Positions 1 through 32,299 of a DNA stretch of 64,000 nt are shown here, in pieces. The notes beneath the pieces are model-generated. The model saw nothing but the letters and a program-made list of their open reading frames with translations. It was not told the origin of the DNA and did not search any database. Position numbers and translations under genes: made by a program. Position 1 is the stretch's first letter. Every line of letters begins with the position of its first letter. Location of the stretch: assembly GCA_018826075.1 (NCBI GenBank), contig JAHKAJ010000024.1, positions 4,343-68,342 of the forward strand, written 5' to 3'. This DNA comes from Candidatus Omnitrophota bacterium (GTDB lineage: Bacteria; Omnitrophota; Gorgyraeia; Duberdicusellales; 4484-171).

Positions 1-2160
1 ACCATTTCCAACATGAAGTCCTTGCTTTCTGAATCCGGACAGGTCCTGTTTGGCGATGAGCCAAATACGATCATGGTCATCGACCATCCGGAAAACATTA
101 ACAAAATCGCGGAATACATTGATATGGTTGATGTTGAACCCCAGCAAGTGCATATTGAAGCCCGGATCGTCGAAGTAAAACTTCAAGGAGAGAATGCGTT
201 AGGGATAGATTGGACTGCTTTCGCACAAAGCGGCGGCTTGAATTTTGGTAATTTCGATATGTATTCCGGTACTGCCAGCAGCGGTATTACAACTAATGGT
301 GTAATTAATTATAAAAGCACAGTTTATCCGCCGATATCCGGGACTACAACCGAGTCCCCTTTTAATCTTACCTTAGCCCAGAACAATATCAATGTGGTCA
401 TGAAGGCTTTAGCTAATACTTATGATAGCGATATTCTTTCAGCTCCTAGCGTGACTACGATCAACAATCATGAGGCTACGATCCAGATGAAGGATGTTTA
501 TCCCTGGGCTGAACCGGAAGTTTCTACCACTGATGCAGTCAGTCAGGTCAGCTGGTCAGTTAATTTTGAGGAAACCGGTATCATGCTTAAAGTTACCCCG
601 ACTATCAGCGAAAATGGAAAAATTGTCCTTGATCTTCAGCCGGAAGTCAGCGAAAAAACTGACGATTATGAAATTACTTTGCAGCCTACCGGAACTGACC
701 CTATTGTTTATACGATACCGATAGTAGCCACCCGTCAGGCAAAGACAAAAGTGGTGGTCGGCAGCGGCGAAACCTTGATCATTGGCGGATTGATTAAAAA
801 TAAGGAAATAGAAGGCGAGACTAAAATACCTTTTTTGGGTGATATTCCCTATATTGGGTACCTTTTTAAAAGCCAGAAAAAAACCCGAGATAAGACTGAA
901 CTGGTTATTTTTGTCTCACCAACGATAATCAACACTCCGGAACTGGCATATAGCGCTAAAATGGAAAAAAAGATCCGTGAAGATGTTGAAGGGAAAGTAT
1001 CTAAAATCGATATGGGTCCGATTAAAGAAGCGGCCCTGAAAGCAGCCGAAAAAGAAAAAGTCCAAGCCGAAAAGGAAGAGTTAGAAGCTGAGAAAGAAAC
1101 TGTCCAAGCTGAGACCGAAGAAGAGCTTTTAGATAAAAAAATAAATGCCTTATACTCTAAAGGAGTGAGGCTATATTTTAACCAGCAGTTTAGAAAATCC
1201 GAAGCAATGTTTAAGGAAATTTTACGTTATGATCCCGATCATAAAGGAGCTCTTAACTATTTAGAGAATAAGCTTCCTGGCAAGTTTCAGGAAGAAAGAG
1301 CTGAGAAGCCTGTTCAGCAAGAGGCAAAAAAACCTGAGCCGCAAGTTTATCAAAAGCCATGGGGCTTGCCTGAAAAAGCCGAACCAGTAAAAATCCAATC
1401 AGAAAGAATAGATATTCAGCAGGCAAAGGAAGCTCAGCAACAAGTCCTGAAAGAACAAGTTAAAAACCTCCAGATCCAGGAGGCAGCCGCTAAAAAAGCC
1501 GCGCAAGTTAAGGCTAAACAGCTTTACAGTTCAGCAGTGTCACTTTACCGCGATAAGCGCTACCAGGAAGCTTACGCTAAATTTCAGGAATTAGATTCTT
1601 TTAGCCCGGACTATGCCCGCAGCAGCTACTATCTGGTTAAAATACCGGAGCTGATTTCGGCTGCTGAAAATAAAAGAAAATCCGAACAAGAGTTAACAGT
1701 TAAAAGGGAAACCGAACTTAAAGCTAAACAGCTTTACAGTTCAGCAGTATCGCTTTATAAAGAAAAGCAGTATGAACGGGCTTACGCTGAATTTCAGAAG
1801 CTGGATAATTTGATGCCTGGATATCAGCGCACAGGAAGTTATTTGACCAGGATACCGGAGTTAATCCAACAACAGCAAAGTATTAAACGGGCGAAAGAAG
1901 CTCGGGAGAAGGAAGCGGCAATTAAAGGCCAGGTTAAGGATGCCTATCAAACCGCAATTTCGCTTTATAAGGCTAAAAGTTACCCGGCAGCCTACGATAA
2001 GTTTTCGCAAGTCCAAAGTCTTATTCCCGGTTATCGAGAAACTGCCTACTATCTAAATAAGATCCCTAAGCTATTGGAAAAAAAACGTAAAGATGATGAG
2101 GCTCGTTTTGAAAAAGACCGTGGTCAGGCAATAAAAGACATGCTGAATGCTTGTGAGTGA
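1..2160 (+). CDS. pilQ: Secretin (PilQ/GspD family), 5'-partial (reading frame open to window edge); secretin C-domain followed by ~450-aa extension with coiled-coil and four ~65-aa repeats
   Basis: Translation contains the canonical secretin C-domain (…VVVGSGETLIIGGLIKN…IPFLGDIPYIGYLFKSQKKTRDKTELVIFVSPTII). Upstream there is an N3-like segment (QVHIEARIVEV…LGIDW). Frame 1 has no stop back to position 1, so the 5' end is outside the window. Confidence 0.8.
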   Translation, partial: TISNMKSLLSESGQVLFGDEPNTIMVIDHPENINKIAEYIDMVDVEPQQVHIEARIVEVKLQGENALGIDWTAFAQSGGLNFGNFDMYSGTASSGITTNGVINYKSTVYPPISGTTTESPFNLTLAQNNINVVMKALANTYDSDILSAPSVTTINNHEATIQMKDVYPWAEPEVSTTDAVSQVSWSVNFEETGIMLKVTPTISENGKIVLDLQPEVSEKTDDYEITLQPTGTDPIVYTIPIVATRQAKTKVVVGSGETLIIGGLIKNKEIEGETKIPFLGDIPYIGYLFKSQKKTRDKTELVIFVSPTIINTPELAYSAKMEKKIREDVEGKVSKIDMGPIKEAALKAAEKEKVQAEKEELEAEKETVQAETEEELLDKKINALYSKGVRLYFNQQFRKSEAMFKEILRYDPDHKGALNYLENKLPGKFQEERAEKPVQQEAKKPEPQVYQKPWGLPEKAEPVKIQSERIDIQQAKEAQQQVLKEQVKNLQIQEAAAKKAAQVKAKQLYSSAVSLYRDKRYQEAYAKFQELDSFSPDYARSSYYLVKIPELISAAENKRKSEQELTVKRETELKAKQLYSSAVSLYKEKQYERAYAEFQKLDNLMPGYQRTGSYLTRIPELIQQQQSIKRAKEAREKEAAIKGQVKDAYQTAISLYKAKSYPAAYDKFSQVQSLIPGYRETAYYLNKIPKLLEKKRKDDEARFEKDRGQAIKDMLNACE

Positions 2161-2172
2161 GGCTGAATAATT

Positions 2173-3888
2173 ATGCCAGAACCAACAATCGACCCCAAGC
2201 CCCAGGAAAAAGAAAATAAATCCCGCAAAAAGCTTGGCGAGATCCTTATTGAGCAGAAGGTGGTAACCGAGGATGTTTTGCGCCAGGCTTTATCCGATCA
2301 AAAAGTTACTCGCCAAAGACTAGGCGAAATTTTGATCGAACGCGGCTGGGTAAGAGCAGAGGATATCAATATCGCCTTGGCCCACCAGATGGAGATCGAG
2401 ACTGTAAGCCTGGCTGATTATGTGATTGATTCCCAGATCCTCTCGGTGATCATAGAGGAGGAAGCTCGTAAATATAAACTGATGCCTTTGTTCAAAGCTG
2501 GAAATGTTTTGTCAGTGGCCATGGCTAACCCTAACGATGTGGTGGCAATTGATCAATTAAGAAGGCAGACCAGTTTTCAAATAAAACCTTTGGCGGCAAC
2601 CGAGTCTGATATATTTTGGGCTATTGAGCAATACTACCAGTCTTCGGGAACAGTTGAAACTGTTTTAACCGGCATAGATATAGACAAACTTCAAAAAGGC
2701 GATTCTAAACAGGAAATGGCGATTTTAAAGCTGGTCAATATGCTGATAACTCATGCGGTTCACGAGAGGATCTCGGACATCCATATCGAACCGGAAAAAA
2801 ATACAGTAAATATCCGTTATCGTCTTGATGGTATGCTTCATAAACAATATGTTTTGCCGAAGGTTTTGCAAGGGGCAGTAACCTCGCGGATAAAGATTTT
2901 AGCTAATCTGGATATTTCCGAAAAACGTTTGCCGCAGGACGGAAGGATCAGGATGCGGGTCGAAGGCCGGGAGATAGATTTTCGAGTTTCAACTTGCCCG
3001 ACAGTTTCCGGCGAAAACACGGTTTTGCGGGTTTTGGATAAGACCGGTTTGACCTTGGGGCTGGAGGGATTAGGATTTCCTGGACGTGACCTGGAAAGAT
3101 TTAAGAAGATGTTTACTTCGCCATATGGGATAATCCTGGTAACCGGGCCGACTGGTTCAGGAAAAACCACCACTCTTTATTCGGTTTTACAACAGCTTAA
3201 TAAAGAAGATGTAAACGTTATGACTGTCGAGGATCCGGTTGAGTATCAGTTTCACGGTATGCGCCAGGTCAATGTCAATTCATCTATCGGCCTTACCTTT
3301 GCCGCGGCTTTGCGTAGTTTCCTGCGCCAGGATCCGGATATTGTCATGGTCGGTGAGATTCGTGATTTAGAAACTGCCGAAATCGCCGTTCAAGCGGCTT
3401 TGACCGGGCATTTAGTTTTGTCAACTCTTCATACCAACGATGCACCTTCGGCTTTCAGCCGGTTGGTTGAGATGGGGGTTGAGCCGTTTTTAGTCTCTAG
3501 TTCACTTCTGGGTGTATTAGCCCAAAGGTTAGTACGTAAAGTCTGCGATAAATGCCATGAAGAATATTCACCCGATGAAACAATGATCAAAGCTTTGCAT
3601 TTAGAGGGAAAAGTGGCTCCTGGTCAAAAGTTTTTTCGGGCCAAAATAAAGGGTTGTCCGGTTTGTAATGGCACTGGCTACAAGGGCCGGGTGGGAATTT
3701 ATGAACTTTTGGATAATACGCCGGGTATCCAGACCTTAGTCCTTAAACGTTCTCCGGCTAATGAGATCCGGGCAAAAGCCCTGACCGAAGGTTTGGTAAG
3801 TTTACGCGATGCAGCAATGGATAAATTTTTAGCCGGACTGATCACCGCTGAAGAAGTCTTCCGGGTAACCCAGGAAGTTGAAATTTAA
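2173..3888 (+). CDS. pilB: Type IV pilus assembly / type II secretion ATPase (PilB/GspE family)
   Basis: N-terminal GspII_E-like domain, Walker A GPTGSGKTTT, Asp box and His box. C-terminal tetracysteine motif CDKCH…CPVCNGTGY typical of PilB/GspE. Confidence 0.9.
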   Translation: MPEPTIDPKPQEKENKSRKKLGEILIEQKVVTEDVLRQALSDQKVTRQRLGEILIERGWVRAEDINIALAHQMEIETVSLADYVIDSQILSVIIEEEARKYKLMPLFKAGNVLSVAMANPNDVVAIDQLRRQTSFQIKPLAATESDIFWAIEQYYQSSGTVETVLTGIDIDKLQKGDSKQEMAILKLVNMLITHAVHERISDIHIEPEKNTVNIRYRLDGMLHKQYVLPKVLQGAVTSRIKILANLDISEKRLPQDGRIRMRVEGREIDFRVSTCPTVSGENTVLRVLDKTGLTLGLEGLGFPGRDLERFKKMFTSPYGIILVTGPTGSGKTTTLYSVLQQLNKEDVNVMTVEDPVEYQFHGMRQVNVNSSIGLTFAAALRSFLRQDPDIVMVGEIRDLETAEIAVQAALTGHLVLSTLHTNDAPSAFSRLVEMGVEPFLVSSSLLGVLAQRLVRKVCDKCHEEYSPDETMIKALHLEGKVAPGQKFFRAKIKGCPVCNGTGYKGRVGIYELLDNTPGIQTLVLKRSPANEIRAKALTEGLVSLRDAAMDKFLAGLITAEEVFRVTQEVEI

Positions 3889-3923: not shown

Positions 3924-4634
3924 ATGCTAAATTTTAGGTTAGGCCGGAAAAAAATCGCCTTTACTTTAATCGAACTCTCAGTGGTTATTGCTATAATCAC
4001 AGTTTTAGCCAGCATTTCTATTCCCAATGTCAATCGTTACCTGATGAAGTCTCGCGATGCCAAACGGATTTCCGATATCCAGGTTTTGAGCCTGGCAATC
4101 GAAAGCTTTTATGATGACCAGGGTCATTATCCGGGTTGGAACGATACGCTTACCCTTACCCCTAAACTTGGCGATAATGGCGAATGTGTAGGTGTAGTCG
4201 GCCGTACGGTAGGAACAGACCCTTGCGCTAGCAGTATTTCCGGAGGCACTAACCGGGTTGACGGCGCTTTAGATGTCTTACTTAAGCCTTATATCCAGGG
4301 TGCGATTCCCAGGGATCCTTCCTACGATAATCAGCCAAATAATTTTTATTACGGCTATGATCCGCATCACGAGTACGTTATCCCTACTGCCATTGCTTGG
4401 TCTGATACTTTTCCTACTGCGAATACTTCTTGCAGCGGCTTAATGTATCCGCATGCCGGTTGGCCGGGAGTGGCTAACAATACTACTGCTGTTTTGAGCA
4501 TCCGCCGTTTTGAGTCAGATACTATACATCGCCACCGGGATACTTGTCGCGGTGCTACCCTTTATATGGATACTTCTGATTATAACATTGCTTTTCCGAA
4601 TATTGGTTATGGGAGTGGATTGGGTAATCTATAA
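3924..4634 (+). CDS. Type IV pilin / pseudopilin (prepilin-type N-terminal cleavage/methylation domain), 236 aa, many N-x-S/T sequons
   Basis: N-terminus MLNFRLGRKKIA|FTLIELSVVIAIITVLASISIP is a class III prepilin signal with Glu+5 and a hydrophobic helix. Confidence 0.8.
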   Translation: MLNFRLGRKKIAFTLIELSVVIAIITVLASISIPNVNRYLMKSRDAKRISDIQVLSLAIESFYDDQGHYPGWNDTLTLTPKLGDNGECVGVVGRTVGTDPCASSISGGTNRVDGALDVLLKPYIQGAIPRDPSYDNQPNNFYYGYDPHHEYVIPTAIAWSDTFPTANTSCSGLMYPHAGWPGVANNTTAVLSIRRFESDTIHRHRDTCRGATLYMDTSDYNIAFPNIGYGSGLGNL

Positions 4635-4670: not shown

Positions 4671-4741
4671 TCTAATTAAGGAAGTTCTAAATAGATCGGG
4701 TGTTTTTTCGTTGTTTAAAATGTGAAAAGGAGGTGTGTGAG

Positions 4742-5299
4742 ATGAAAGGTTTTACACTTATTGAATTGATTGTAGTCATTGCAATCATTGCAATTTTAGC
4801 TGCAATCATTGCTCCCAATGCTTTTAAGGCCATTGAAAAGGCTAGCCGTTCAGCTGCCATCGGTGATTTCCGCACCATCAAGACAGCTTCTATGGCTTTT
4901 TATGCTGACACTGGAACTTGGCCGATCACGAATTGTGAAGAGGCGCTTTTAAAGAATCGGAATAATACTACAGTTTGTGCTGATGTTACTGGCGCTGGAG
5001 GTATTTCCGGTTGGGATGGCCCTTATGTTGAAATGTGGCCGTCAAAAACCCGTTGGGGCGGGGTTTACACTTATACCAACAACAACAATATAACTTGGAA
5101 TGCTAGTTATGCTGCTGGTGAGACGGCTGGAGCTTGCATTGGAAGGTATATTGCCATGAATGGTACCCCGTTTGATACCGAAAAGAAGCTGGATGAACAG
5201 ATCGACGGAACAGTTAACAATACAACTGGTCAATATCGTTGGAATGCTTCTAATATTTCATACATGTTGATTTCAGCTGATTGCACATTGCAGAATTAA
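4742..5299 (+). CDS. Type IV pilin (likely major pilin), 185 aa; start corrected from ORF-track 4700 to the Met preceding the prepilin signal
   Basis: MKG|FTLIELIVVIAIIAILAAIIAP is a canonical short-leader prepilin signal. The gene has a strong RBS, its own promoter and a strong terminator. The mature part is sequon-rich. Confidence 0.8.
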   Translation: MKGFTLIELIVVIAIIAILAAIIAPNAFKAIEKASRSAAIGDFRTIKTASMAFYADTGTWPITNCEEALLKNRNNTTVCADVTGAGGISGWDGPYVEMWPSKTRWGGVYTYTNNNNITWNASYAAGETAGACIGRYIAMNGTPFDTEKKLDEQIDGTVNNTTGQYRWNASNISYMLISADCTLQN

Positions 5300-5362: not shown

Positions 5363-5455
5363 AGAGCTTTGGGCTTTAAGAAAAACAAAAATACGATTGA
5401 CGCAGCAATAAACTTTAGTATAATAATCTATGTAGATTTATTCCAAAACCAAACC

Positions 5456-6169
5456 ATGGAACACTTACTTACTTTAGAAGGTATTTACAAAAAATTTAAG
5501 AGGACCGAAGTGCTTAAAGGGGTTAACCTTAAAGTACGAAAGGGCGAGATCTACGGCCTTTTAGGTATCAACGGAGCCGGTAAAACTACGCTGATCCGTT
5601 CCATTCTAGGTTTATTGCGAATCGACCAGGGCCGCATTCTGTTTAAAGGAAATATCTGCCAACCTAAGGATATCCAGAAAAATTTTGGTTTTTTACCGGA
5701 AAATTTCCTGCCCCCGAAAAATCTTAAAGGCATAGAGTTTCTTAGGATTTTAGGTTCGGGCTTTAATCTAAAACTGGCTGATATCAAGTCGTTGCTGGAG
5801 TTGGTTGGTTTAACCAAGCATAGCCGTAAATATATTGGAGCGTACTCCCGTGGGATGATCCAGCGCTTAGGCTTAGCCACTTGCCTGCTTAAAGATCCTG
5901 AAGTGATCATTTTGGATGAACCGACCTTAGGTTTAGATCCTCTGGGCCAGAAGCAGGTTTTAAATATAATCGCTGATTTAAACCGGAGGGGGAAAACCGT
6001 ATTTTTTTCATCGCATATACTTTCCCAAGTCGAACAGCTTAAAGCCAGGATAGCGGTGATCAACTCAGGCACTATCGCTTTTGAATCGGGAGTCGATGAG
6101 ATCCTAAAAAAACACAAGGCTTCCAGTCTAGAGGAGGCCTTTCTTAAAGAGGTAGAAGGGCAGAAATGA
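5456..6169 (+). CDS. ABC transporter ATP-binding protein; start placed at MEHLLTLEG rather than ORF-track 5369
   Basis: Walker A GINGAGKTTL, ABC signature-like SRGMIQRLGLA, Walker B IILDEPTLGLD and an H-loop. Overlaps the downstream permease by 4 nt. Confidence 0.8.
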   Translation: MEHLLTLEGIYKKFKRTEVLKGVNLKVRKGEIYGLLGINGAGKTTLIRSILGLLRIDQGRILFKGNICQPKDIQKNFGFLPENFLPPKNLKGIEFLRILGSGFNLKLADIKSLLELVGLTKHSRKYIGAYSRGMIQRLGLATCLLKDPEVIILDEPTLGLDPLGQKQVLNIIADLNRRGKTVFFSSHILSQVEQLKARIAVINSGTIAFESGVDEILKKHKASSLEEAFLKEVEGQK

Positions 6170-6927
6170 GAAAATTTTTAGCAATTTCTTTTCTTAATTT
6201 TAAAGAAGCAGTGCGCGATAAATTTTTCCTGGGAGTGGTTTTTTTCTTTATTTTTTATCTTTTGTTCTGTATTTTTCTGGGAAAGCTTTCAGTCGGCCAC
6301 GCTGACAAGGTGATGCGGGATGCCGGCCTGGCCGGAATCGAACTTACTGCTATAATCCTGGTCATTTTTAGTTTTACTTTCAGTTTTTTTCGCGAGAAAG
6401 AAAACCGGATCTTAGAAGTTTACTTGACTGATTTTTCACCCGGTATTTGCGTCAGCGGCAAAATTTTCGGTTATGTCCTGCTTTGCGGGTTATACCTACT
6501 TTTGTCAGCAATTGCCTTCGGAGGGCTGCTTTATTTAAACCAGGCCTTTAATCTGGCCTCACTGGTTGCTCTATACCCTTTATTCTTAAAGATCGTGATT
6601 ATCATTTTTTTGGCTTCTTTGTTTTCCACCTTATTTTCTTCGGCAACCACTGCCCTTCTTTCATTGCTTTTTGTTTATGTCGGGGCAGAGCTTATTCCTT
6701 CGGCTTTAGCTATCGTGAAAGCTTACGGGGCTCCGGTCCAAAAAGTTTTTATTAAATTTATCTATCTTTTTTTTCCTAATATGGACAAACTGGACATTAA
6801 ATCCCTGGCAGTATATGGGAAACTTCCCGATTACCGGTTTTTCCTGGGAATCACCATTTATGCCCTGGTCTACTGTTTGTTTTTATGGTTAATAAACTTG
6901 CTCATTTTTCAGAAAAAGGAATATTAA
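6166..6927 (+). CDS. ABC-2 family transporter permease (6 predicted TM helices)
   Basis: Highly hydrophobic 253-aa protein translationally coupled to the ABC ATPase. No specific motifs were seen. Confidence 0.6.
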   Translation: MRKFLAISFLNFKEAVRDKFFLGVVFFFIFYLLFCIFLGKLSVGHADKVMRDAGLAGIELTAIILVIFSFTFSFFREKENRILEVYLTDFSPGICVSGKIFGYVLLCGLYLLLSAIAFGGLLYLNQAFNLASLVALYPLFLKIVIIIFLASLFSTLFSSATTALLSLLFVYVGAELIPSALAIVKAYGAPVQKVFIKFIYLFFPNMDKLDIKSLAVYGKLPDYRFFLGITIYALVYCLFLWLINLLIFQKKEY

Positions 6928-7796
6928 AATTTCTAGTTTTCCTGGCCTGCCTTTTAATTATTCCTTTTTTGTCCCTTCGATTGCAGACGGACACTGCGCT
7001 GCTTGGTGAGCGTCTGCTTTTTGTCCCCCCGCAAGAGTATCTAAGTAACATCCGGGGAGGTTTTCGCAACCTCTTGGCCGATGTTTATTATATCAAAGGC
7101 GTGCTTGCTGTCACTGATGAGTTTAATAGCCGCCAGGAAAGGATTTCCTGGACCCAACAAGTTTTCAAAGCGGCAGTGCTTCTGGATAAAGATATGCTTC
7201 AGGCCTATTTTTTTGCCGGTTCGGCTATTGTCAACAGCAAAGAAGAACTTAAACAGGGAAACGAATTCTTGATCCTGGGTTTGACCAACAGCCCTTCCTA
7301 TTGGCAGATCCCTTACTGGATCGGATTTAATTATTACCTTATCGGCGACAGCCTTAAAGCCGCCGAGTTTTACCGGTTGGCTTCCCAGCGGCCGGGAGCG
7401 CCTAATTTTTTAAAAAGCAACCAGGCGATGCTGTTTTATAAGGCCGGTGAACCGCGAATGGGCTTGATGTACTTGGAAGGTTTGCTGGAGTCAGTAAGCG
7501 ATCCTGAGCAGCTCAAATGGGTAAAGCTTAAAATCGAATGGCTTAAGAACATGATTGTTTTGCAGGATGCAGTCGAGTCGTTTAAGGATCGTTACAACCG
7601 CCTGCCGCAGGATTTGGAAGAACTAATCAGCCGACGGCTGATCTCAAGCGTCCCCAAAGACCCTTTTGGCGGCGGCTATTACCTGGATGATCAATCGGGA
7701 AAAATCAAAAGTTCTTTTGGGATGCCGACTAAGGTCAAAACCACTCCGGAAAAGCCGGCTGAATCCGGAGAAGGCTGTTCTAAATGCAAAAAATAA
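6885..7796 (+). CDS. Hypothetical membrane-anchored protein with TPR-like helical region, part of the pilus/ABC cluster
   Basis: N-terminal TM (ILKFLVFLACLLIIPFLSL) followed by an alpha-helical region. Overlaps the permease 3' end and the next pilin gene start. Confidence 0.4.
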   Translation: MVNKLAHFSEKGILKFLVFLACLLIIPFLSLRLQTDTALLGERLLFVPPQEYLSNIRGGFRNLLADVYYIKGVLAVTDEFNSRQERISWTQQVFKAAVLLDKDMLQAYFFAGSAIVNSKEELKQGNEFLILGLTNSPSYWQIPYWIGFNYYLIGDSLKAAEFYRLASQRPGAPNFLKSNQAMLFYKAGEPRMGLMYLEGLLESVSDPEQLKWVKLKIEWLKNMIVLQDAVESFKDRYNRLPQDLEELISRRLISSVPKDPFGGGYYLDDQSGKIKSSFGMPTKVKTTPEKPAESGEGCSKCKK

Positions 7797-8305
7797 TCAC
7801 CAATCGGCAAAAATCGGGGTTTACTCTAGTTGAATTTATCATGGTCATTGCGATCATCTCCATGATCTCAGTGACTATCGGAGTTTCCCCTTCCACACTT
7901 ACGCCCCGCAAGCTTGAAAACGAAGTCCAGAAAATAGTCGGTGATTTAAACTGGGCCCGGGCTATGGCCATTTCCACTGGCTATCATTACCGGATAGATT
8001 TTGACATCAACAACGATACAGTGGTCAGTAGCACCGACAATAATACCTATATAATCTATAAAGTCGATCCCGCAGATTTAGTCAACGGAACACCGGTCAA
8101 ACGCGGGGTGTTGAGGGTAGATGGTATCAATCTGACTCATTCTTCGCCAGCCGTACCGATATATTTATTTGAATTTATCAGCCCGCAAGGCGGTCTTAAC
8201 AGTACGGTTCTTGACCCTTTGACTATTCATCTGGAGCTAAGCGGCGCGGCAAGTAACATAACTGTCCGCAACTTAACCGGTTATATAAGCTGGGATCGTT
8301 TATGA
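7784..8305 (+). CDS. Minor pilin / pseudopilin (GspH/FimT-like), 173 aa
   Basis: MQKIITNRQKSG|FTLVEFIMVIAIISMISV prepilin signal. The size and position are typical of a GspH-type pseudopilin. Confidence 0.7.
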   Translation: MQKIITNRQKSGFTLVEFIMVIAIISMISVTIGVSPSTLTPRKLENEVQKIVGDLNWARAMAISTGYHYRIDFDINNDTVVSSTDNNTYIIYKVDPADLVNGTPVKRGVLRVDGINLTHSSPAVPIYLFEFISPQGGLNSTVLDPLTIHLELSGAASNITVRNLTGYISWDRL

Positions 8306-9684
8306 AAAAAAAGCTGGCTAAAGCTTTCAGCCTTATTGAAGTTGCCGTGAGCATAACGGTTTTGGGCCTGGTCATTGTCGCAATTGTGCCGGCCATAAAC
8401 AGTGCTTTGCGCCGGGCCCGAATCTCAAACTACAAAGCCGTAGCTCACCGCCTAGCTCAGGAAAGGATTGAGCAGCTGACCGGGACTAATTTCAACAGTG
8501 ATTTTTATGACGGGTTATTCAATCTTACTACCGGCAATCCTTGGAACGATACCGTCTTTCATTTGTTAGGAAACAATACCTTTCCCGGAAACGAGGCTTA
8601 CGGAAACCTTTCGCTTAATACCAGCGACCCTGATGATCCTTTTAGTCATTACAGCCGGTTGACCGAAGGTTCCTGGGATCTTGACCAGGATAGGACTTTA
8701 GATAACGAGAAGTTGGCTGGACGGCCTTTAACGGGGATGTATGGTAATTTAAGCCTGGTCCGGGTAAGCGTATCTTGGGATTTTAATGAAGATGGAGTCG
8801 ATGATTATGAACCGGTGGTAGTAACAACTTTTAAGGCCGGCAGCCTTGAATCTACATGTTCAGCCATGAACCTGGTCAATACTCCTTTTTTAGATAATTC
8901 CACTGACCTTTGCTCTGAACCGGATAAAACTCTGCCAGCCAGTTTTGACGGTACTCTTAACAGCCGGATAACGCCTTACACTGCTGGTACTTTGACTATT
9001 AATGCCAATGTAGGCTGGGCTAATTGTCCTTCTTATTTTATCCTAGCTAATTCGGTAGTTTTAGATGGTTCACCCACGGTTTATGCTGAAGGTAAGACCA
9101 ACTCTACTCTTGATGGCGGTTCGGGTGGTTCTGGCGGCGGCGGTGGTGGTGGCTTTTGTGGGTTTGGTTTTCGTCTTGGAGGCAATGGCGGTAGTGGTGG
9201 TAACGGAATAGGTGCTTGCGGGGCAGGCGGAACTGGCTGTGGCAATAGTTATAATTCAGGTTTTACTTATGGTACGGGTGGTAGTGGTGGCAATGCCGTA
9301 CTGCCTGGCGGAGTCGGTGGCGCTGGCGGTAATGGTTTCGGTGGTGGTGGCGGCGGCGGGACTGTAGCTCCCGGGTTACCTTATGGCCAGGGTGGTGGTG
9401 GAGGTGGAGGCTTAATAGTGATCGTGACTTCTTCCCTTAGTGGCGGCGGCACTTTGAATGCCGCTGGTGGTAATGCTACAGGTTTGTCCTTTCCCGGAGG
9501 GGGCGGAGGAGGAGTGATTTGGATTGCTGCTGAGTCTTACGACGGTAGTATTAGTGCCGACGTTAACCGAGGCACCAACGACTTTCCAGTTCCTATTTTT
9601 AACGCCACATCCGGTATAGCCAGGATTTTTCAACTGAATACTGATGGTTCTCTTACCGCTAGGAATTTCACTGATACCTGGTAA
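8302..9684 (+). CDS. Large minor pilin-like protein with glycine-rich low-complexity central region
   Basis: MKKKLAKA|FSLIEVAVSITVLGLVIVAIVP prepilin-type N-terminus. About 140 aa (roughly 9115-9540) are dominated by GGSGG/GGNGG/GGGGGG tracts. It has ~11 N-x-S/T sequons. Confidence 0.6.
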   Translation: MKKKLAKAFSLIEVAVSITVLGLVIVAIVPAINSALRRARISNYKAVAHRLAQERIEQLTGTNFNSDFYDGLFNLTTGNPWNDTVFHLLGNNTFPGNEAYGNLSLNTSDPDDPFSHYSRLTEGSWDLDQDRTLDNEKLAGRPLTGMYGNLSLVRVSVSWDFNEDGVDDYEPVVVTTFKAGSLESTCSAMNLVNTPFLDNSTDLCSEPDKTLPASFDGTLNSRITPYTAGTLTINANVGWANCPSYFILANSVVLDGSPTVYAEGKTNSTLDGGSGGSGGGGGGGFCGFGFRLGGNGGSGGNGIGACGAGGTGCGNSYNSGFTYGTGGSGGNAVLPGGVGGAGGNGFGGGGGGGTVAPGLPYGQGGGGGGGLIVIVTSSLSGGGTLNAAGGNATGLSFPGGGGGGVIWIAAESYDGSISADVNRGTNDFPVPIFNATSGIARIFQLNTDGSLTARNFTDTW

Positions 9685-9703
9685 AATAAGTTTTGTTTAG
9701 AAT

Positions 9704-11248
9704 ATGAAGTTTAAAAAGTATAAGCTTTCAGTAACTTTGGTCGAGGCAGTGGTAGTTGTGGCTATCTTTGCGGTGATTGCCGCGGCTACTGGTTCGATCC
9801 TGTTTACAGCCAGCCGTTCTGGTTCGCGCCTGGCTGACAAGGCTAAGGTTTTTCAGGATGCTACCTGGGCTATGGATTATATGGTTAACGAAGCCCGCTG
9901 GGGAGCTGATTTTTACCTTGCTCCGGTTCCTTTTGAAAATTATGACCTGATTACCTTTCAAAGCGATACCAACCATAATAGGACTGATCCCAATGATCCT
10001 TGCGTTTGGTATTGGCGGGGTTTTACTACCACCGCTATTCCGGCGGTAAATTACGGCAATAGCAGCATCTTGTACCGTGGTTTGGATGCCGCTTGTAACA
10101 CTGATAATACTACTTCTTTACAGGCAGCTAATGCCAGCCGCCAGGAACTGGTTGGTTTTATAGTCGATAACCCGGTTAATGCTACGGGTAACCCGGTAAG
10201 GGTATTTGGTTGGAACAATACCACTAGTGAATTTAGCGTTGTCTTGACTACCCAGAATCCTTCAATCCATGATAACCAGACCTTGAAAGCTAAGGTAGTG
10301 GCTTTAAATAATGTAGAGAGAGCTATCTGTCAGTGTTCTGATGGCCAAGATAATGATGGAGATGGGGGGATTGATTATCTTACTGAAGCCAGTGAAACCT
10401 GCGGCCTTTTCTTTGAGTATGATGACGTCAGGTACGGCGGGACTGGTTTTCCCAATTTTAGATTTGACCAGACTCTTGATTCGATCTTGCCGGGAAACAA
10501 GTTTCAGGATTTTAATTTTCGCAATGAACGGTTTAAGCTTTGGGTAGATTTCAGGATGTTCTCAACTCTTGGCGCCAGCACCGGTTATGGCTATGGTTCC
10601 TCCGGCTATGCCGGCCCGAATTTCAGCAGCGATGCCGACAGTTTTATACATATGGATTTGCTTGTCCGGGCTCCTTATGATATTCAAGGTATCCCTGAGA
10701 GCACTTTTTATGCCAACACCATCAACTCTCAGACTATGCTGGGTATTGGCAGCTGGCTGGATTTATCCACTCAGCCTGCAGGCAACGTCTGGATTTTTAA
10801 GGATGAAAGAAGGGATAAATATCGTGTAAGCCAGGTTCATTCCAGCCGAGCGGAAAGGGCTGCAGCTGTGGTCAGTGCGCCGAATTTTAGCTATAGTGTA
10901 CCGCCCTGGTGTGAAACCAGCCCCGGCGGCCCCTGCGTAGCGAATTATTATTATAATACTTATGGTAATGGCGGTTATATTTATGTTGATAATAGCGGTG
11001 AGCTGCATATTGGTTACGTGATTAGCCGTACGAAGTACAATTATCTTTGTTCTGCCCACCCGACTTTTCTTGTCGGTATAACCAAAGACAGCTGTACTGA
11101 TCCGGCTTGCGCCGATGGAGTTGATAATGACGGTAATGGTTTTATTGATTATCCTGAGGATCCTGGCTGCGCCTCGGCTAAGGATATTTCAGAAGTTGCC
11201 CATGACCTGCAGTGTGTAGATGCCAATGACATGTACGAATATAAGTAG
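9704..11248 (+). CDS. Large minor pilin-like protein with two MopE-like putative metal-binding motifs
   Basis: N-terminus MKFKKYKLSVTLVEAVVVVAIFAVIAAA is a degenerate prepilin-like signal with Glu and a hydrophobic helix. It has CSDGQDNDGDGGIDY (about 10324-10378) and CADGVDNDGNGFIDYPEDPGC (about 11088-11170). Confidence 0.55.
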   Translation: MKFKKYKLSVTLVEAVVVVAIFAVIAAATGSILFTASRSGSRLADKAKVFQDATWAMDYMVNEARWGADFYLAPVPFENYDLITFQSDTNHNRTDPNDPCVWYWRGFTTTAIPAVNYGNSSILYRGLDAACNTDNTTSLQAANASRQELVGFIVDNPVNATGNPVRVFGWNNTTSEFSVVLTTQNPSIHDNQTLKAKVVALNNVERAICQCSDGQDNDGDGGIDYLTEASETCGLFFEYDDVRYGGTGFPNFRFDQTLDSILPGNKFQDFNFRNERFKLWVDFRMFSTLGASTGYGYGSSGYAGPNFSSDADSFIHMDLLVRAPYDIQGIPESTFYANTINSQTMLGIGSWLDLSTQPAGNVWIFKDERRDKYRVSQVHSSRAERAAAVVSAPNFSYSVPPWCETSPGGPCVANYYYNTYGNGGYIYVDNSGELHIGYVISRTKYNYLCSAHPTFLVGITKDSCTDPACADGVDNDGNGFIDYPEDPGCASAKDISEVAHDLQCVDANDMYEYK

Positions 11249-11251
11249 ACA

Positions 11252-13501
11252 ATGAGTCAAAATAAGCTTCAAAAAACTCAAACTTTGCTTTACGTCAGTT
11301 TTGCCCTGCTGGCAGTCAGTGTGGTGGCGGCTGTGGTTATGACCAGTGTCATCACTAACCTAAAAACCGCCTCTTATCAGCAGAAAGGAATGGATGCTTA
11401 TCAGCTGGCCATGGCCGGGGTTGAACGGGCTAAGGTCGAGCTGGCTAATAGTTGGGGTTGGCCAGGCATGGATGATGGCGGGGATGATGATCCTCATTTG
11501 GGAGAAGCCGGCTCGGATGAAACTGAAAGCCTGGGTGATGGCCAATACTGGGTGGCGATAGCAGATAATGTTGATGGTACGGTGACTGCGATTTCTCACG
11601 GTTGGGTGGGTGATGCTCATCAGGTGATCGAGGTGATAATAGAACAAGTAGCCGGCACAGTCCCTGTTCCTGAAGGGGTATTTGTGGCTGAACGGGATAG
11701 AAACCGGGTCAGTCAACTGGATGAGAACGGTGATCCTGTCTGGTCGCTGGAAGGAGCGCCTATGGGTGCCGGTCAAATTGCTTTTAACCCTAACACTAAT
11801 GAATCCTGGGTGTTTGCCGGGAGTCAGATCGTCAAATTAGGGGCTAATGGCATAGCCGAGTGGTCTTATCAGTTAGCTGTTGGTTCTGGACGCCTTGATG
11901 TTACGGTTAACCCTTATACTAGTGAAGTCTGGGTGGCTAATTTTGACGGCGACCAGGTAGTTAAATTAAATGCTGACGGAAGTTTGGGCTGGGTAGTTAA
12001 TTTTGGCAGTAACAGCCGGCCGACTTCAGTGGCTATAGTTCCTGAAACTACACCAAATACTACTCAATCCTGGGTGAGCTGCAGCAATAGCAACAGAAGG
12101 CTTTATAAGTTAAACGCTAATGGCAGTGTTGCTTGGTCTCTTTACAGGACTGATTTCCGGCTTTATTCGGTGGCAGTTGACCCTAATACTAAGGATTCTT
12201 GGGTAGCGCAGTATTATAACAACCGTATTGGTAGAGTAGATAATAATGGAGCAATGAAGTCTGGCTGGCCTAAAGGCGGCTTTAACCGTCCTTTTGCTGT
12301 TTCAATTAATCCTACTACGCGGGAATGCTGGGTAGGCGAAGTACGTGGTCACCGAATCATAAAATTAAATGATAACGGTACTTGGGCTTGGAATCTGAAT
12401 ACCGGTAGAGATATAGGCAAAATTTCGGTTGACCCTAATACTAATGAATGTTGGGCCGTTGGTGCTAACTGGGTTGCTAAAATAATAGACAATGGTACGT
12501 TTGGATCATTTGCTTTCCAAAATACCTCATTATCGATTCCTAGTTTGGATGTAGCCTCGATTGAAGTTGACCCGGCTACTGGAGAATGCTGGGTGAATGA
12601 ATCTGGCCGCAGCCGGGTTGTGCGTTTGGATACCAATGGCAATAAAGTTTGGCAAAGCCCGGCTTTCAATGCTTATGCGCTTGCCGGACTCGATTCCGGA
12701 GAAGTTTGGGTAGCTAATTACAACTCTTCAGCTGCATACACCGGTGTGGTTAAAGCCAATTCTGTTCCTTCAGTTGACTGGATGAGTGATGATATCTGGG
12801 CTGAGTCGCGTTCGATAGCAGTAAATTTTGCCGGTGAATCCTGGGTGGCTGATTATAACCGTGATAGAGTTAGGAAATTGAGGGCTGATGGTACAATTGA
12901 GTGGACCAAGAATCTTAACAACCCAATTTCAGTTGCAGTTAACCCTAACACCAATGAGTGTTGGGTGGCTTATAATGGTAACAGAGTTAGAAAATTAAAT
13001 GCCGATAGTACAAATGCCTGGACCAGGAGCGGCCTTAACGACCCAAGATCAGTTTCAGTTAACCCTAACACCAATGAGTGCTGGGTGGCTGAATATGGCG
13101 GTGGTAGAGTTAGAAAATTAAGGGCTGATGGTACAATTGAGTGGGGCAGGAATCTTAGCAACCCGATCTCGGTCTCAGTTAACCCCACTACTAGCGAATC
13201 CTGGGTGGCTGAATATGGTGCTAATCGGGTTAGAAAACTAAATGCCGACTCTACAGTTGCCTGGACCAGGGGCAGCCTTAGCGGACCGGTTTCAGTATCA
13301 GTCAATCCGGTTACCAGCCAATGCTGGGTGTCTACTGTTACGGGTACTGCTCGAGTAATCAAGTTGGATACCGACGGTACCGTAGTAGTTGACAAGTCCG
13401 GGTATAGTTATCCATCAGCAGTATCAGTCCCGCTGGTTGACACCAGTGCAACAGTTAACAATTCGATTAATGTTCAGTCCGGCAGCTGGCGGAAACCTTG
13501 A
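11252..13501 (+). CDS. PilX-N-terminal-domain minor pilin fused to ~14 tandem beta-propeller-type repeats (PilY1-like tip adhesin candidate)
   Basis: The N-terminus has a TM helix plus LAMAGVERAKVEL, which is PilX_N-like. About 40-aa repeats then run from 11690 to 13430, with consensus V-R/K-K-L-N-A-D-G-x-x-x-W … V-S-V-N-P-N-T-N-E-C-W-V-A. Confidence 0.55.
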   Translation: MSQNKLQKTQTLLYVSFALLAVSVVAAVVMTSVITNLKTASYQQKGMDAYQLAMAGVERAKVELANSWGWPGMDDGGDDDPHLGEAGSDETESLGDGQYWVAIADNVDGTVTAISHGWVGDAHQVIEVIIEQVAGTVPVPEGVFVAERDRNRVSQLDENGDPVWSLEGAPMGAGQIAFNPNTNESWVFAGSQIVKLGANGIAEWSYQLAVGSGRLDVTVNPYTSEVWVANFDGDQVVKLNADGSLGWVVNFGSNSRPTSVAIVPETTPNTTQSWVSCSNSNRRLYKLNANGSVAWSLYRTDFRLYSVAVDPNTKDSWVAQYYNNRIGRVDNNGAMKSGWPKGGFNRPFAVSINPTTRECWVGEVRGHRIIKLNDNGTWAWNLNTGRDIGKISVDPNTNECWAVGANWVAKIIDNGTFGSFAFQNTSLSIPSLDVASIEVDPATGECWVNESGRSRVVRLDTNGNKVWQSPAFNAYALAGLDSGEVWVANYNSSAAYTGVVKANSVPSVDWMSDDIWAESRSIAVNFAGESWVADYNRDRVRKLRADGTIEWTKNLNNPISVAVNPNTNECWVAYNGNRVRKLNADSTNAWTRSGLNDPRSVSVNPNTNECWVAEYGGGRVRKLRADGTIEWGRNLSNPISVSVNPTTSESWVAEYGANRVRKLNADSTVAWTRGSLSGPVSVSVNPVTSQCWVSTVTGTARVIKLDTDGTVVVDKSGYSYPSAVSVPLVDTSATVNNSINVQSGSWRKP

Positions 13502-13585: not shown

Positions 13586-14785
13586 ATGCCAGCTTATAAA
13601 TACACAGTAAGGGACAGGTTCGGAAGAAAAGTCAAAGGCTTTTCTATTGCTGCTGACCGCAGAGTTTTAGCTGAAGAGCTGGCTAAAATGGGCTATATTT
13701 TTATCTCCGCTGATGAAGTCGGCCGGCTAAAGCAGGGAAAAACCATAAAGATCAAGAAAGGCGAGGTTCTTAATCTTACCCGTAACCTATCAGCGCTTTT
13801 AAACGGCGGTATTCCTTTACTTGAGTCTTTGACTGCTTTGATCGGTGATACGTCCGAGTTAAATTTATTAAGTATCCTTATAAGTATTAAGAGTTATGTT
13901 GAGGCCGGCGGTTCATTCCGGGATGCTTTAGTTCTTCATCCCAAAGTATTTTCGGAATTATACCGGGCAGTAGTGGCTGGCGGAGAGGCAACTGGAAGGT
14001 TAGGGGCAGCGCTTGAGCAGATGTCTGATTATCTTGAGTGGGAGCAGGACCTTCAATCAAGGGTGCAAGGATTGGCAATATACCCGATCATTCTTTCAGT
14101 GATCATGCTTTTGGCTTTAGGTGTTATTGTTATCGTAGTTTTGCCGAAGTTTGAAGCTTTGTTTTCTGATTTTGGAGCTGAATTACCACTGATCACCCAG
14201 TTGGCCATGTCCATGAGTAAAATAGTCGCCAAGACCTGGGTTTATATTCTTGGGGCTATCATTTCTGCGGTAATTGTGTTAAAATTGATAATAAAGCGGA
14301 ATTACCGCTTGGCTCTTTTTTTCGATAAGTATAAACTTAAGCTTCCGATTTTCGGCGATGTAATCTATAAGTTATGCGTTTCACATTTCGCCAGGTCAAC
14401 GTACCTTTGTTTGTTTAACGGGATACCGATCGTCACCACCTTGGATATGGTACGCCAGACTGTGGGGAACAAATATTTAGAGGCGGCTTTGGACATGGTT
14501 AAGAAAAGTGTTTTTACCGGAGGCGAACTTTCAATGGCTCTTTCCGGGACCAATGCTTTCCCCAGCTTTATGGTCCGGATGGTCCACGTCGGAGAGAGCG
14601 CCGGTAATTTAGCCGACGGTTTTAGTAAAACCTGTAAGTTTTACGATAAGGAGATCCCCCGATTGATCGGCGCGGTATTCTCTATTTTAGAGCCGCTAAT
14701 AATTGTTTTTTTAGGCGTAGCAGTCATGGGTTTGGCCTTTGTGGTCTTTTTGCCTTTGACCCAGCTGTTACAGAAAGTAGGTTAA
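13586..14785 (+). CDS. pilC: Type IV pilus / T2SS inner-membrane platform protein (PilC/GspF family)
   Basis: 399 aa with two T2SSF-like repeats and 3 TM segments. The N-terminal cytoplasmic domain resembles PilC. Confidence 0.8.
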   Translation: MPAYKYTVRDRFGRKVKGFSIAADRRVLAEELAKMGYIFISADEVGRLKQGKTIKIKKGEVLNLTRNLSALLNGGIPLLESLTALIGDTSELNLLSILISIKSYVEAGGSFRDALVLHPKVFSELYRAVVAGGEATGRLGAALEQMSDYLEWEQDLQSRVQGLAIYPIILSVIMLLALGVIVIVVLPKFEALFSDFGAELPLITQLAMSMSKIVAKTWVYILGAIISAVIVLKLIIKRNYRLALFFDKYKLKLPIFGDVIYKLCVSHFARSTYLCLFNGIPIVTTLDMVRQTVGNKYLEAALDMVKKSVFTGGELSMALSGTNAFPSFMVRMVHVGESAGNLADGFSKTCKFYDKEIPRLIGAVFSILEPLIIVFLGVAVMGLAFVVFLPLTQLLQKVG

Positions 14786-14786
14786 T

Positions 14787-16448
14787 ATGAAAAATATTGT
14801 TGCTATTGATATCGGCGCCTGCCTTACCAAAATAATTGTTGCTGAAGACAAGCGCAAACTGCTGGAGATAGCCTCGTTTAAATATTTCCCGACCCCTTAC
14901 CGTAAAGACGACGTTTTTGATGAAGAGGTTTTTTTCGAACGCTTATTTGCGGTTATCAGCCAGGAAGTGCTAAAGTCATCACAGGTGGCTATCGGGCTTC
15001 CTTCGCCGACGACTAACTTTTCTTTTTTTGAATTACCGTCGATGGGGGCTGCTGATTTAAAAAAAGCCATTATCAGTGAAGCTCAGCGGACGATCCGTCC
15101 CACACCGGCAGATAGTGATATCCTGCGCTATGCTGTTTTGAAGAGTCCCCAGGCTAAGGAAGTCAAACATGCCAATATTTTAGTTGGTTCGGGGGTATCG
15201 GCTGAGATTACCCGCTATTACACTTTATTCGAGCGCCAGGGGATCACCCCCAGTTTTATCGGTTCTTCGGCCTCAAGCCCGATGGTTTATCCTTTAGGCT
15301 ATTACCCGGATTTACCGTCCGGTTGGTGTTTTGTCGACATTGGTTATACTAACACTACGATTGTTATTTTTTTCAACAACATCCCGACTTTAGTCCGGAC
15401 CATACTTTTTGCCACTCGCGATTTTATCCGGGCCATCTCCACCGATAAAAAAATCGGGCTTAAAGAAGCTCAGGATGTTTTTTTAAAACGCGAAGCCCAG
15501 GAATTAGCCGATACTAACTGGGAATACCTGATTTCGGAGATCCGGCGTTCTTTTGCTTACTACAAGGAAGTTTCCGGCGGTAAAGCCATTGAAGGGGTGC
15601 ACTTTACCGGAGGCATCTTTGCCGTAGGGCCCTATATCGATATTTTAAAGAAAAACATTGGCGGAAAAGTCGAGCTATTCGATGCCCGTATAGTTAAAAA
15701 AATATCCTTGGATAAAGTCGCGGCTGAAGAAATTACCAGCGCCGGTTACTTTTTCGCTAATTCTTTAGGTTTAGCCTTATCTTTATGCGAAAAGAAGCAA
15801 ACCTTGAATTTTTTACCGGAAACGGCTTTGAAAGAGAAACAAACCGAAATCGTTAAGTCTCTTTCTCGGCAAGTGCTCACGGTTTTGACTCTTGGCTTAG
15901 CAGTAATTTTCTGCCTGTCGTTGTTTTGGATTTCAGCAGTCAGGGGAAAATTAAAAAATGAGCTTTTGACTTTTTCCGAACAGGAATACCAAGATGCGGT
16001 TGCTACTGAAAATGAGATCACTCAAATAGAAAATCAAGTTACCGCCGAAGCTGATTTTATTGCCGAACAAGTCAGGCTCGGCGAGCAGCGCCGTAAGGTT
16101 TTTTCGGTTATCGCCAAATGCCTGCCTAGCAATGCTTATGTGGTTACTTTTGAATTCGGTTCGGGTTCTCCAGCGGCTGCCCCAAGTTCTTCTGGCGGCC
16201 GGCGCGGCCAGCCAGCCAGTCCAGCCAGCGAAGGAGAAACTGTTAAATGTGAGGGCCGGATTCAAGGAACCTACGAAGATACCGTTGAACAGCTTAAAGT
16301 CCTTGCCCGCAAGCTGCGTAAATCCGATATGTTTTCGGAAGTCACAGTTTCCCGTCAGACCCTTGGCAGTGAGCCGTTTTTGCCTTATCTTTCTGATTTT
16401 ACCGAAAATGTAAGAAGACAATTTACTTTGGAGTTAAAATTAAAATGA
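14787..16448 (+). CDS. pilM: Fused PilM (actin-like ATPase fold) - PilN-like (TM + periplasmic) protein
   Basis: N-terminus MKNIVAIDIGACLTKIIV is a PilM/FtsA-like fold running for ~340 aa. A single TM helix (VLTVLTLGLAVIFCLSLFWISAV) follows, then a ~180-aa periplasmic region. Confidence 0.6.
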   Translation: MKNIVAIDIGACLTKIIVAEDKRKLLEIASFKYFPTPYRKDDVFDEEVFFERLFAVISQEVLKSSQVAIGLPSPTTNFSFFELPSMGAADLKKAIISEAQRTIRPTPADSDILRYAVLKSPQAKEVKHANILVGSGVSAEITRYYTLFERQGITPSFIGSSASSPMVYPLGYYPDLPSGWCFVDIGYTNTTIVIFFNNIPTLVRTILFATRDFIRAISTDKKIGLKEAQDVFLKREAQELADTNWEYLISEIRRSFAYYKEVSGGKAIEGVHFTGGIFAVGPYIDILKKNIGGKVELFDARIVKKISLDKVAAEEITSAGYFFANSLGLALSLCEKKQTLNFLPETALKEKQTEIVKSLSRQVLTVLTLGLAVIFCLSLFWISAVRGKLKNELLTFSEQEYQDAVATENEITQIENQVTAEADFIAEQVRLGEQRRKVFSVIAKCLPSNAYVVTFEFGSGSPAAAPSSSGGRRGQPASPASEGETVKCEGRIQGTYEDTVEQLKVLARKLRKSDMFSEVTVSRQTLGSEPFLPYLSDFTENVRRQFTLELKLK

Positions 16449-31943: not shown

Positions 31944-32299
31944 GGGGGTGTAAAGGCTTCGACGTACTGGCTAAATGAACGGCCGCATGCCGCGAGGGTA
32001 AGCCGCCCGCGTTAACGGGGCTTACAAAACACAAATGCAACACCTTACGTTGCTGAACCTGAATACGCGTTAAGCTAATCAGGGCACTGATATTCTTTAC
32101 CTCAAGGGGTATTAGTGTTTAAACTAAGAGGTTAGGATCCGGTTCTTTTGCTTTGAGAGCCTGGTCTGAAAACAAGAAAGCTGCTGCTCGGAGGATCTGG
32201 CCCTTTAGAGCCTTGGGGCTTAAGCTAAACAGAGGGATAAGCATGTAGTGGCTTTTCGTTGAACCTTTACGGACGCGGGTTCGATTCCCGCCACCTCCA
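31944..32299 (+). ncRNA. ssrA: tmRNA (SsrA)
   Basis: The 5' GGGGGTG pairs with the 3' CACCTCC to form a 7-bp acceptor stem with a G3:U70 pair. The 5' GGCTTCGACG is a D-analogue. A 3' T-arm GCGGGTTCGATTCCCGC is followed by discriminator A. An internal tag-like ORF reads …ANTNATPYVAEPEYALS-stop. A T-run follows. Confidence 0.85.

Follow-up and report, generated by a model that had tools for sequence, protein, structure and literature searches.

Secretins belong to the best-studied outer-membrane machines. Their accessory regions are regarded as lying at the N-terminus, with no more than a short S-domain at the C-terminal end. This S-domain is a helical region of about 30-65 amino acids (aa) which packs on the barrel and binds the pilotin. 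In known secretins the chain exits the barrel at the periplasmic outer face, the place of the S-domain and of pilotin binding, and the solved structures of GspD, PilQ, RcpA and InvG stop 0-65 aa past the barrel. In this study we analysed a stretch of 64,000 nucleotides (nt) from Candidatus Omnitrophota bacterium (assembly GCA_018826075.1, contig JAHKAJ010000024.1, positions 4,343 to 68,342), hereafter called the window, which begins within the gene of a secretin core whose chain continues far beyond the barrel. We describe a phylum-level secretin family with C-terminal coiled-coil tails, in one clade of which the tail reaches more than 400 aa by means of a reusable module composed of a tetratricopeptide repeat (TPR) knot plus a helix. 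A survey of the Omnitrophota treats the type IVa and Tad pili of this phylum without the secretin-tail feature (PMC10066038). Omnitrophota are uncultured nanobacteria and their pili have been proposed to serve host attachment (PMC10066038). Therefore, the architecture of the pilus or secretion machine bears on their way of life. In the literature, of which our coverage was incomplete so that absence is no proof, we found no account of a secretin with a long C-terminal coiled-coil/TPR tail and none of split secretins in Omnitrophota.

A secretin core with a long C-terminal tail

The 5' end of the secretin gene is cut by the window start. The full protein (P0001, 771 aa) was recovered at 100% identity, and P0277 (751 aa) represents the same protein from a downstream start codon with a normal signal peptide. 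The beta-barrel domain was recognised by Pfam (PF00263, E 6.6e-46), a sequence search of the PDB related the secretin domain to the structures of PulD, XcpQ and PilQ with E values of about 1e-30, and the top fold matches of the secretin part were GspD, PilQ and InvG. Moreover, the gene is encoded together with type IV filament machinery comprising an ATPase, a platform protein and pilins. A preliminary description of the sequence had proposed a secretin bearing a long C-terminal helical tail, which our analysis confirmed. It had put the tail at ~450 aa; we measured about 409 aa after the barrel, starting behind '...VIFVSPTIINT'.

The barrel is preceded by an N3-type domain that shows a beta-alpha-beta-beta-alpha fold in the predicted model and is the sole periplasmic N domain on this polypeptide. 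A Sec signal peptide combined with all N domains (N0, N1-N3) on one chain was thus not found here. On the contig of the window, directly before its first position (L003:866-1684), and likewise at L001:9201-9962, lies the gene of a secreted protein of 253-272 aa with an STN/N0 and one Secretin_N domain. In a conventional secretin these domains make up the N-terminal half of the chain; here N3, barrel and tail follow in the next gene, whose product has a signal peptide of its own. As N0/N1 reside on the other protein, we consider the pair a split secretin whose core still counts as a secretin. Of 19 related Omnitrophota loci, 18 show the same split, and the halves are fused in L014 and in P0010/P0012. 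These 19 loci from GTDB species representatives were found with a full-length alignment, which is biased towards the secretin domain; three of them encode the full tail.

Directly behind the barrel a conserved segment forms a helix in the full-length model (P0001 364-381) and is S-domain-like by position. The alignment with E. coli GspD reaches window aa 328, and the tail chain runs ~380 aa beyond the S-domain-like helix. As described before, a charged Glu/Lys-rich helical stretch comes first in the remaining tail. It contains a 21-nt tandem repeat at positions 1044-1109 with 3.1 copies, which encodes 7-aa heptads (AEKEKVQ/AEKEELE/AEKETVQ). For the window protein beyond the barrel, Pfam gives only weak TPR matches. 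We also considered a liposecretin and rejected it, since the Cys in the signal peptide (LLVC|PGQ) is not conserved and the lipobox is poor. No conserved lipobox or Cys was present in the signal-peptide cleavage region of the nine tailed homologues described below.

Repeat units and the predicted structure of the tail

The previously reported pattern of Tyr, Ala, Leu, Phe and Pro residues is present in three clear units, R2, R3 and R4, together with a divergent first unit, R1. The preliminary description had counted four near-identical repeats of ~65 aa, which has to be corrected. In a self-comparison R2, R3 and R4 follow each other at an exact period of 70 aa (210 nt), and R1 sits 124 aa upstream of R2 across a gap that includes a disordered Pro/Lys-rich spacer. 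Per 70-aa period 32/70 residues are identical between R2 and R3, and 23/70 and 25/70 in the other two pairs (33-46%). The 49-aa cores of these three units are 45-63% identical, and R1 shares 14-27% with the other units. BLASTP aligned R2 with R4 at an E value of 6e-15 and R1 with R3 at 3e-6. Accordingly, the similarity of the repeats is far above chance.

Two segments (1513-1590 and 1723-1800) had been called almost identical at the nucleotide level and were taken as a sign of recent duplication. We counted 60 matches in 78 positions (77%). A 26-nt exact run is common to R2 (1513-1538) and R3 (1723-1748), no other stretch was notable, and over the whole period the DNA of R2 and R3 is 58% identical. 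Identical residues are encoded by the same codon in 22/32 cases for R2/R3 and in 8/23 and 9/25 cases for the other pairs. These comparisons suggest R2 and R3 as the closest pair, possibly owing to a somewhat younger split or a short conversion tract. A recent duplication or a collapsed repeat was rejected on account of the 58% DNA identity of the period together with the occurrence of the same protein across independent assemblies. Independent assemblies from NCBI, JGI, ENA and Logan contain the protein with at most two substitutions. Therefore, misassembly by a collapsed or expanded repeat, which had been named as a possible refutation, was set aside.

The 21-nt tandem repeat and a 14-aa indel between P0005 and its close relative P0283 suggest that the charged spacers change in length by slippage. 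Such expansion would be expected if the tail were a non-functional low-complexity region or an artefact of assembly or annotation. However, the open frame and the order of the units are kept at 40-55% identity in nine homologues, identical protein was recovered from independent assemblies and the model of the tail is of high confidence. We therefore regard this explanation as highly improbable.

For a closer description of the unit, 23 units of the R2-R4 type from the nine homologues were aligned. Residues 2-33 of the unit match one TPR motif, and the 34-residue helix-turn-helix is seen in the model as helices A and B. It is followed by a 'PGY' loop and a third helix with the sequence 'YLxxIPxLI'. 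Pfam TPR_2 matches 22 of the 23 units weakly (best E 5.6e-6, mostly below Pfam's cut-off), and the best PDB match of the unit profile is a designed consensus TPR (E 2.5e-5), in agreement with the TPR-like character proposed before. A run of at least three contiguous TPRs of ~34 aa forming a grooved superhelix was not found, the period being 70 aa here.

The tail was modelled as a monomer by AlphaFold2 from the nine sequences. The mean predicted local distance difference test score (pLDDT) was 82.7, with values above 90 from tail residue 170 to the end (~407). In the model neighbouring units are joined through continuous helices of 47-51 residues, and the B helices comprise 14 residues. In each long helix, helix C of a unit continues through ~20 charged linker residues into helix A of the following unit, and the full-length model shows the same helix pattern in the tail. 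When the tail was compared with the PDB by Foldseek, only local TPR similarity was detected (template modelling (TM) score 0.12-0.14, root-mean-square deviation 26-47 A), which argues against a compact TPR solenoid. According to the model, long helices follow one another along the tail as the segments of a rod, and three helices form a knot wherever two segments meet. Long, highly charged helices with dense i/i+4 E-K/R pairs, known as ER/K single alpha-helices, are stable as monomers. The linkers between the units are 45-55% charged and 10-15% hydrophobic, and the density of opposite-charge i/i+4 pairs is 0.25-0.38 over a length of only ~20 aa. Judged from its sequence, the linker composition is more in keeping with single helices exposed to solvent than with a classical coiled coil.

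The residues Y5, Y12, K15, Y17, Y34 and Y40 are invariant or nearly so in the 23 aligned units. One explanation would be that the tail is a ligand-binding anchor, in which the conserved Tyr/Lys surface of the units would bind peptidoglycan or another envelope polymer and thereby fix the pore to the wall. The AMIN domains of PilQ, as well as GspB/OutB, fix the pore to the wall in this way. Wall anchoring is needed by known secretins (PMC9239104, PMC2572700), and periplasmic coiled-coil-plus-TPR proteins, e.g. YbgF/CpoB, are among the fold matches of the tail. However, most of the conserved residues occupy canonical TPR packing positions, and neither Pfam nor the unit searches detected a known peptidoglycan-binding domain. 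Altogether, we give little credence to such a binding function.

Distribution of tail and unit, and a possible strut or tether

A search with the full-length protein yielded 1,032 relatives, and all names given by the sources are Omnitrophota. The tails were surveyed in the best 120 of these relatives. In 117 of the 120 a recognisable barrel end is followed by a tail with a median length of 92 aa (range 43-438 aa), whose typical sequence is heptad-like. A C-terminal coiled-coil tail is therefore the rule in this Omnitrophota secretin family. The preliminary description had considered a C-terminal extension unusual, which has to be qualified for this family; extensions of more than 300 aa with units are present in only nine of the 120 best matches (P0001-P0009). 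Their tails measure 310-438 aa. These homologues align at 40-55% identity with full coverage, and the order of their parts and the C-terminal motif are conserved. They have in common the Y/G/P signature behind the barrel and the C-terminal helix 'KDRxQxIKEMLNxCE'. A family-wide C-terminal docking motif was considered and discarded, because only the nine tailed homologues possess the KDRxQxIKxMLNxxE helix, with vague resemblances elsewhere. In the databases the tailed secretins and their relatives are named 'hypothetical', 'tetratricopeptide repeat protein' or 'CpaC'.

The number of clear units is two in P0004, P0005 and P0009, three in P0001, P0002, P0003 and P0008, and four in P0006 and P0007. 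Apart from P0008, all of P0001-P0009 have the divergent first unit in addition. The last unit is positionally orthologous across P0001-P0005, R4 being 59-61% identical to the last unit of P0002-P0005. For the internal units of P0006 and of P0007, the closest counterparts lie in the same protein (71-82%), a sign of lineage-specific duplications. Moreover, a comparison of repeat number among strains, as suggested earlier, was carried out within clusters of at least 90% identity. Here, the unit number was constant and the 14-aa charged-spacer indel between P0005 and P0283 was the sole change in length.

Two further secretins, P0217 and P0250, carry N0/STN, Secretin_N and Secretin domains on one chain, followed by 4-6 units. 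P0250 lies between pilO and pilM. Accordingly, the tail also occurs on a second, PilQ-type secretin lineage. At the P0250 locus a gene for a 132-aa TPR protein (L005:4263-4661) overlaps the secretin gene by 4 nt and is followed by pilM; its product may be a conventional small TPR accessory factor alongside the tail.

When the profile of the 49-aa unit was searched exhaustively, 2,993 proteins matched at E <=1e-3, 179 of them below 1e-30, and all matches with an organism name were from Omnitrophota. For the statistics on the unit-bearing proteins we used 147 newly listed proteins from this search, of which two (P0217 and P0250) are secretins. Their mean length is 1,210 aa and their mean unit number 8; the highest number, 20 units, was counted in a protein of 2,301 aa. 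Most have a signal-like hydrophobic N-terminus, Pfam shows TPR alone, and the sequence between the units is mostly more than 50% charged. The 1,110 inter-unit spacings have a median of 98 aa, and 0.5% are 50 aa or less. Therefore, the spacing is a defining trait of the module. Apparent fusions of the unit to TolC-like (OEP) and UPF0164 proteins (P0216, P0229) reached 10-27 bits per unit, which corresponds to generic TPR, and were not used.

Two of the largest unit proteins share as neighbours a small open reading frame (ORF), an AsmA/DUF748 protein and a PilZ protein, and this neighbourhood hints at an envelope role of the large unit proteins. At L026:8001-16564 and on the P0126 contig, standalone proteins of ~2,000 aa with 16-20 units are followed by these three genes in this order. 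In L026 a gene encoding more than 3,400 aa is located just upstream of the large unit protein.

The TPR-like nature of the units had led to the proposal that the tail substitutes for a pilotin or PilF. In this role, fused to the secretin as a pilotin or an assembly factor, the tail would stand in for a TPR lipoprotein of the PilF/PilW/TadD/MshN type and aid outer-membrane targeting and assembly. Secretins have TPR partners in TadD, PilF and MshN, the last being a predicted TPR protein, and TadD binds to the extreme C-terminus of the secretin (PMC10499894). PilF and BamD are among the weak fold matches of the tail, and we noticed no pilotin-like gene in the window cluster. In contrast to these proteins, the units are at least 70 aa apart and never contiguous, and the TM score to PilF is about 0.12. 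Thus, no superhelical groove of the PilF/TadD type is predicted. Neither the lipobox Cys of a TPR pilotin nor its compact crescent of 5-6 TPRs was found; the signal peptides are devoid of a conserved Cys or lipobox and the tail is C-terminal. Furthermore, ~97% of the best unit-bearing proteins are not secretins, most members of the secretin family are entirely without units, and the tailed PilQ-type P0250 still has the separate 132-aa TPR protein downstream. The substitution for a pilotin is hence weakly supported and in our opinion improbable.

Lone TPR hairpins usually need neighbours for burying their packing faces. The tails could meet this need by self-assembly into a periplasmic cage, in which the units of 12-15 neighbouring subunits would stack as TPR rings and form a vestibule replacing the missing N0-N2 rings. 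The exact 70-aa register of R2-R4 would put equivalent units at equal height, only one N domain is part of this polypeptide, N0/N1 being encoded separately, and TadD itself rings RcpA (PMC10499894). However, the monomer model already provides each hairpin with a cap in the form of its third helix, at pLDDT values above 90. In addition, unit number and spacer length vary between the homologues, the unsplit N0-bearing secretins P0217 and P0250 are tailed as well, and for standalone proteins with up to 20 units no scaffold that could form a ring is apparent. A cage therefore appears rather unlikely.

We tentatively favour the reading that the tail is a length-adjustable periplasmic strut or tether on the split-secretin core of a machine resembling a type II secretion system (T2SS) or type IV pilus. 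This preference has four grounds: the number of units varies, the charged spacers are prone to slippage, the C-terminal helix is conserved, and the module is used again in long standalone rods. The periplasmic outer face of the barrel is the S-domain and pilotin site (PMC10499894). By analogy, the tail would leave the barrel at this face, and 12-15 tails per pore would hang into the periplasm. If extended, a tail could reach about 25-35 nm, which is comparable to a periplasm; this reach was inferred, not measured, from the helix lengths at 0.15 nm per residue minus the back-tracking B helices. The conserved C-terminal helix and the TPR knots would be presented to a partner deeper in the envelope, with the cell wall, the inner-membrane platform and the separately encoded N0 protein as candidates. 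The long tail would then be an elaboration of the shorter coiled-coil tail on nearly all family secretins. As an inferred function of the tail, the anchor suggested in the preliminary description, or a strut, is compatible with all data.

Several points speak against a strut or tether. The location of the tail, its oligomeric state, its length and its partner are indirect deductions, and AlphaFold from nine sequences tends towards over-predicted long straight helices. Many tyrosines of the knots are conserved, so the units could serve specific ligand binding rather than mere spacing. In the short-tailed majority the conserved C-terminal motif is missing; therefore, the idea that a docking end was kept and a spacer inserted holds within the clade only. 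Moreover, the unit profile was derived from the tailed secretins themselves, and the AsmA neighbourhood is known from two related loci.

If the tail is indeed a tether or ruler, it would represent a new solution for positioning a pore and coupling it across the envelope in cases where N0 sits on another polypeptide. Likewise, many uncharacterised Omnitrophota 'TPR proteins' would be marked as envelope-structural elements. If the tail is merely a spacer without a specific partner, it would be a descriptive curiosity. A broader and more speculative idea, to which we assign a small chance, is that the spaced single-TPR unit on charged helices is a hitherto unrecognised, phylum-typical building block for modular envelope rods or rulers, which on secretins would set the distance or the linkage between the pore and deeper layers and in standalone chains would organise the periplasm. 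Together with the secretin split, such a rod or ruler module would imply a distinct architecture of type IV filament machines, and standalone chains of 10-20 units beside AsmA-like bridges would order the periplasm of ultra-small, possibly predatory cells.

Genomic setting and comparison with known systems

The genes downstream of the secretin constitute a complete type IV filament cluster (Table 1), in which no retraction ATPase was noticed. An unannotated ORF of 241 aa (16445-17170) adjoins the gene of the PilM-like protein. The block of an ABC-transporter ATPase and two ORFs between the major and minor pilins is conserved in L001, L008 and L019. The two unusually large proteins with an N-terminal pilin methylation motif and the beta-propeller protein (8302-13501) could be components of a filament tip or adhesin. 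Upstream of the split secretin, L001:6653-9163 encodes a protein of 836 aa, which combines a signal peptide and an HEMVH (HExxH-like) motif with a DUF5684 membrane domain at the C-terminus. This DUF8575/DUF5684 protein has homologues in L003, L008, L009, L019 and L022, only at loci of the tailed clade, and it is absent from 10 tail-less loci and from the tailed L007. A role as a clade-specific partner or as a processing enzyme is possible. Elsewhere in the window Rfam identified a tmRNA gene and three tRNA genes (31944-32302; 33159-33232; 33340-33413; 53860-53932), which are unrelated to the secretin tail.

Table 1. Features of the secretin gene, of the genes following it in the window and of the tail model.
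Feature	Position	Strand	Remarks
Secretin core gene, 3' 719 codons and stop	1-2160	+	frame 1 open from window start
N3-type Secretin_N-like domain	22-147	+	partial Pfam match PF03958, aa 8-49, E 8e-4
Secretin beta-barrel domain PF00263	406-930	+	Pfam, window aa 136-310
Conserved post-barrel segment PELAYSAKMEKKIREDVEGKVSKIDMGP	937-1020	+	Y, G, P invariant in nine tailed homologues
Glu/Lys-rich helix	1021-1140	+	unbroken into helix A of R1
R1, divergent unit, '...ILRYDPxHKGALxYLExKIP' type	1141-1287	+	best Pfam TPR_2 match of the protein
Pro/Lys-rich spacer, predicted disordered	1306-1398	+	pLDDT below 50
Polar helical spacer into helix A of R2	1399-1512	+	model
R2, 49 aa: TPR helix A, helix B, PDY loop, helix C	1513-1659	+	self-comparison, model
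R3	1723-1869	+	exactly 210 nt after R2
R4	1933-2079	+	exactly 210 nt after R3
C-terminal helix, motif R..KDRxQxIKDMLNACE	2080-2157	+	kept in nine/nine tailed homologues
GspE/PilB-type ATPase (MshEN and T2SSE)	2173-3888	+	
Two (pseudo)pilin genes	3924-4634, 4700-5299	+	N-methylation motif
ABC-transporter ATPase and two overlapping ORFs	5369-7796		ORFs without Pfam match
GspH-like minor pilin and two large pilin-like proteins (460, 514 aa)	7784-11248	+	
NHL/beta-propeller protein, 749 aa	11252-13501		
GspF/PilC platform protein	13586-14785	+	
PilM-like protein	14787-16448	+	
Long helix	tail residues 29-81		
Short B helix	tail residues 85-98		
Helix	tail residues 103-123		
Pro/Lys-rich segment	tail residues 124-157		pLDDT below 50; no helix predicted at 124-154
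Long helix	tail residues 155-205		
Short B helix	tail residues 209-222		
Long helix	tail residues 229-275		
Short B helix	tail residues 279-292		
Long helix	tail residues 299-345		
Short B helix	tail residues 349-362		
Long helix	tail residues 369-406		

The protein resembles the GspD/PilQ secretins of the T2SS and of type IVa pili in its barrel and N3 domain, in the cluster of GspE-type ATPase, pilins, GspF and PilM and in the short helix behind the barrel. In contrast to the solved GspD/PilQ structures, which stop 0-65 aa past the barrel, the Omnitrophota protein continues for 409 aa. Its N0/N1 domains are on a separate upstream protein, and no pilotin gene was noticed in the cluster. The TPR pilotins PilF/PilW and TadD and the predicted MshN likewise tie TPR motifs to a secretin. 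However, PilF/PilW and TadD are lipoproteins in their own right, whose 5-6 contiguous TPRs curve into a crescent and leave a groove for binding, whereas the Omnitrophota tail has single TPRs at least 70 aa apart, is fused to the secretin and is not lipidated.

Similarities also exist to helical spacers that set or bridge distances in the envelope, in the sense of a functional analogy and not of homology. SlpA of Deinococcus, a connector of outer membrane and wall, has a long periplasmic coiled-coil stalk which extends from outer-membrane components or is associated with them (PMC9388160). CpoB/YbgF is a periplasmic coiled-coil-plus-TPR protein, and the YbgF TPR was found among the fold matches of the tail. 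Unlike both, the Omnitrophota tail is without an SLH, OmpA or other wall-binding domain, and its stalk is punctuated by TPR knots. The spaced-unit proteins of the Omnitrophota themselves (P0121 with 2,301 aa, P0123 from Ca. Zapsychrus exili and P0144) share the same 49-aa unit and charged helical spacers with the tail and usually start with a signal-like hydrophobic stretch. In contrast to the tailed secretins they are standalone proteins of 3-20 units without a pore domain, and two of them adjoin AsmA-like and PilZ genes.

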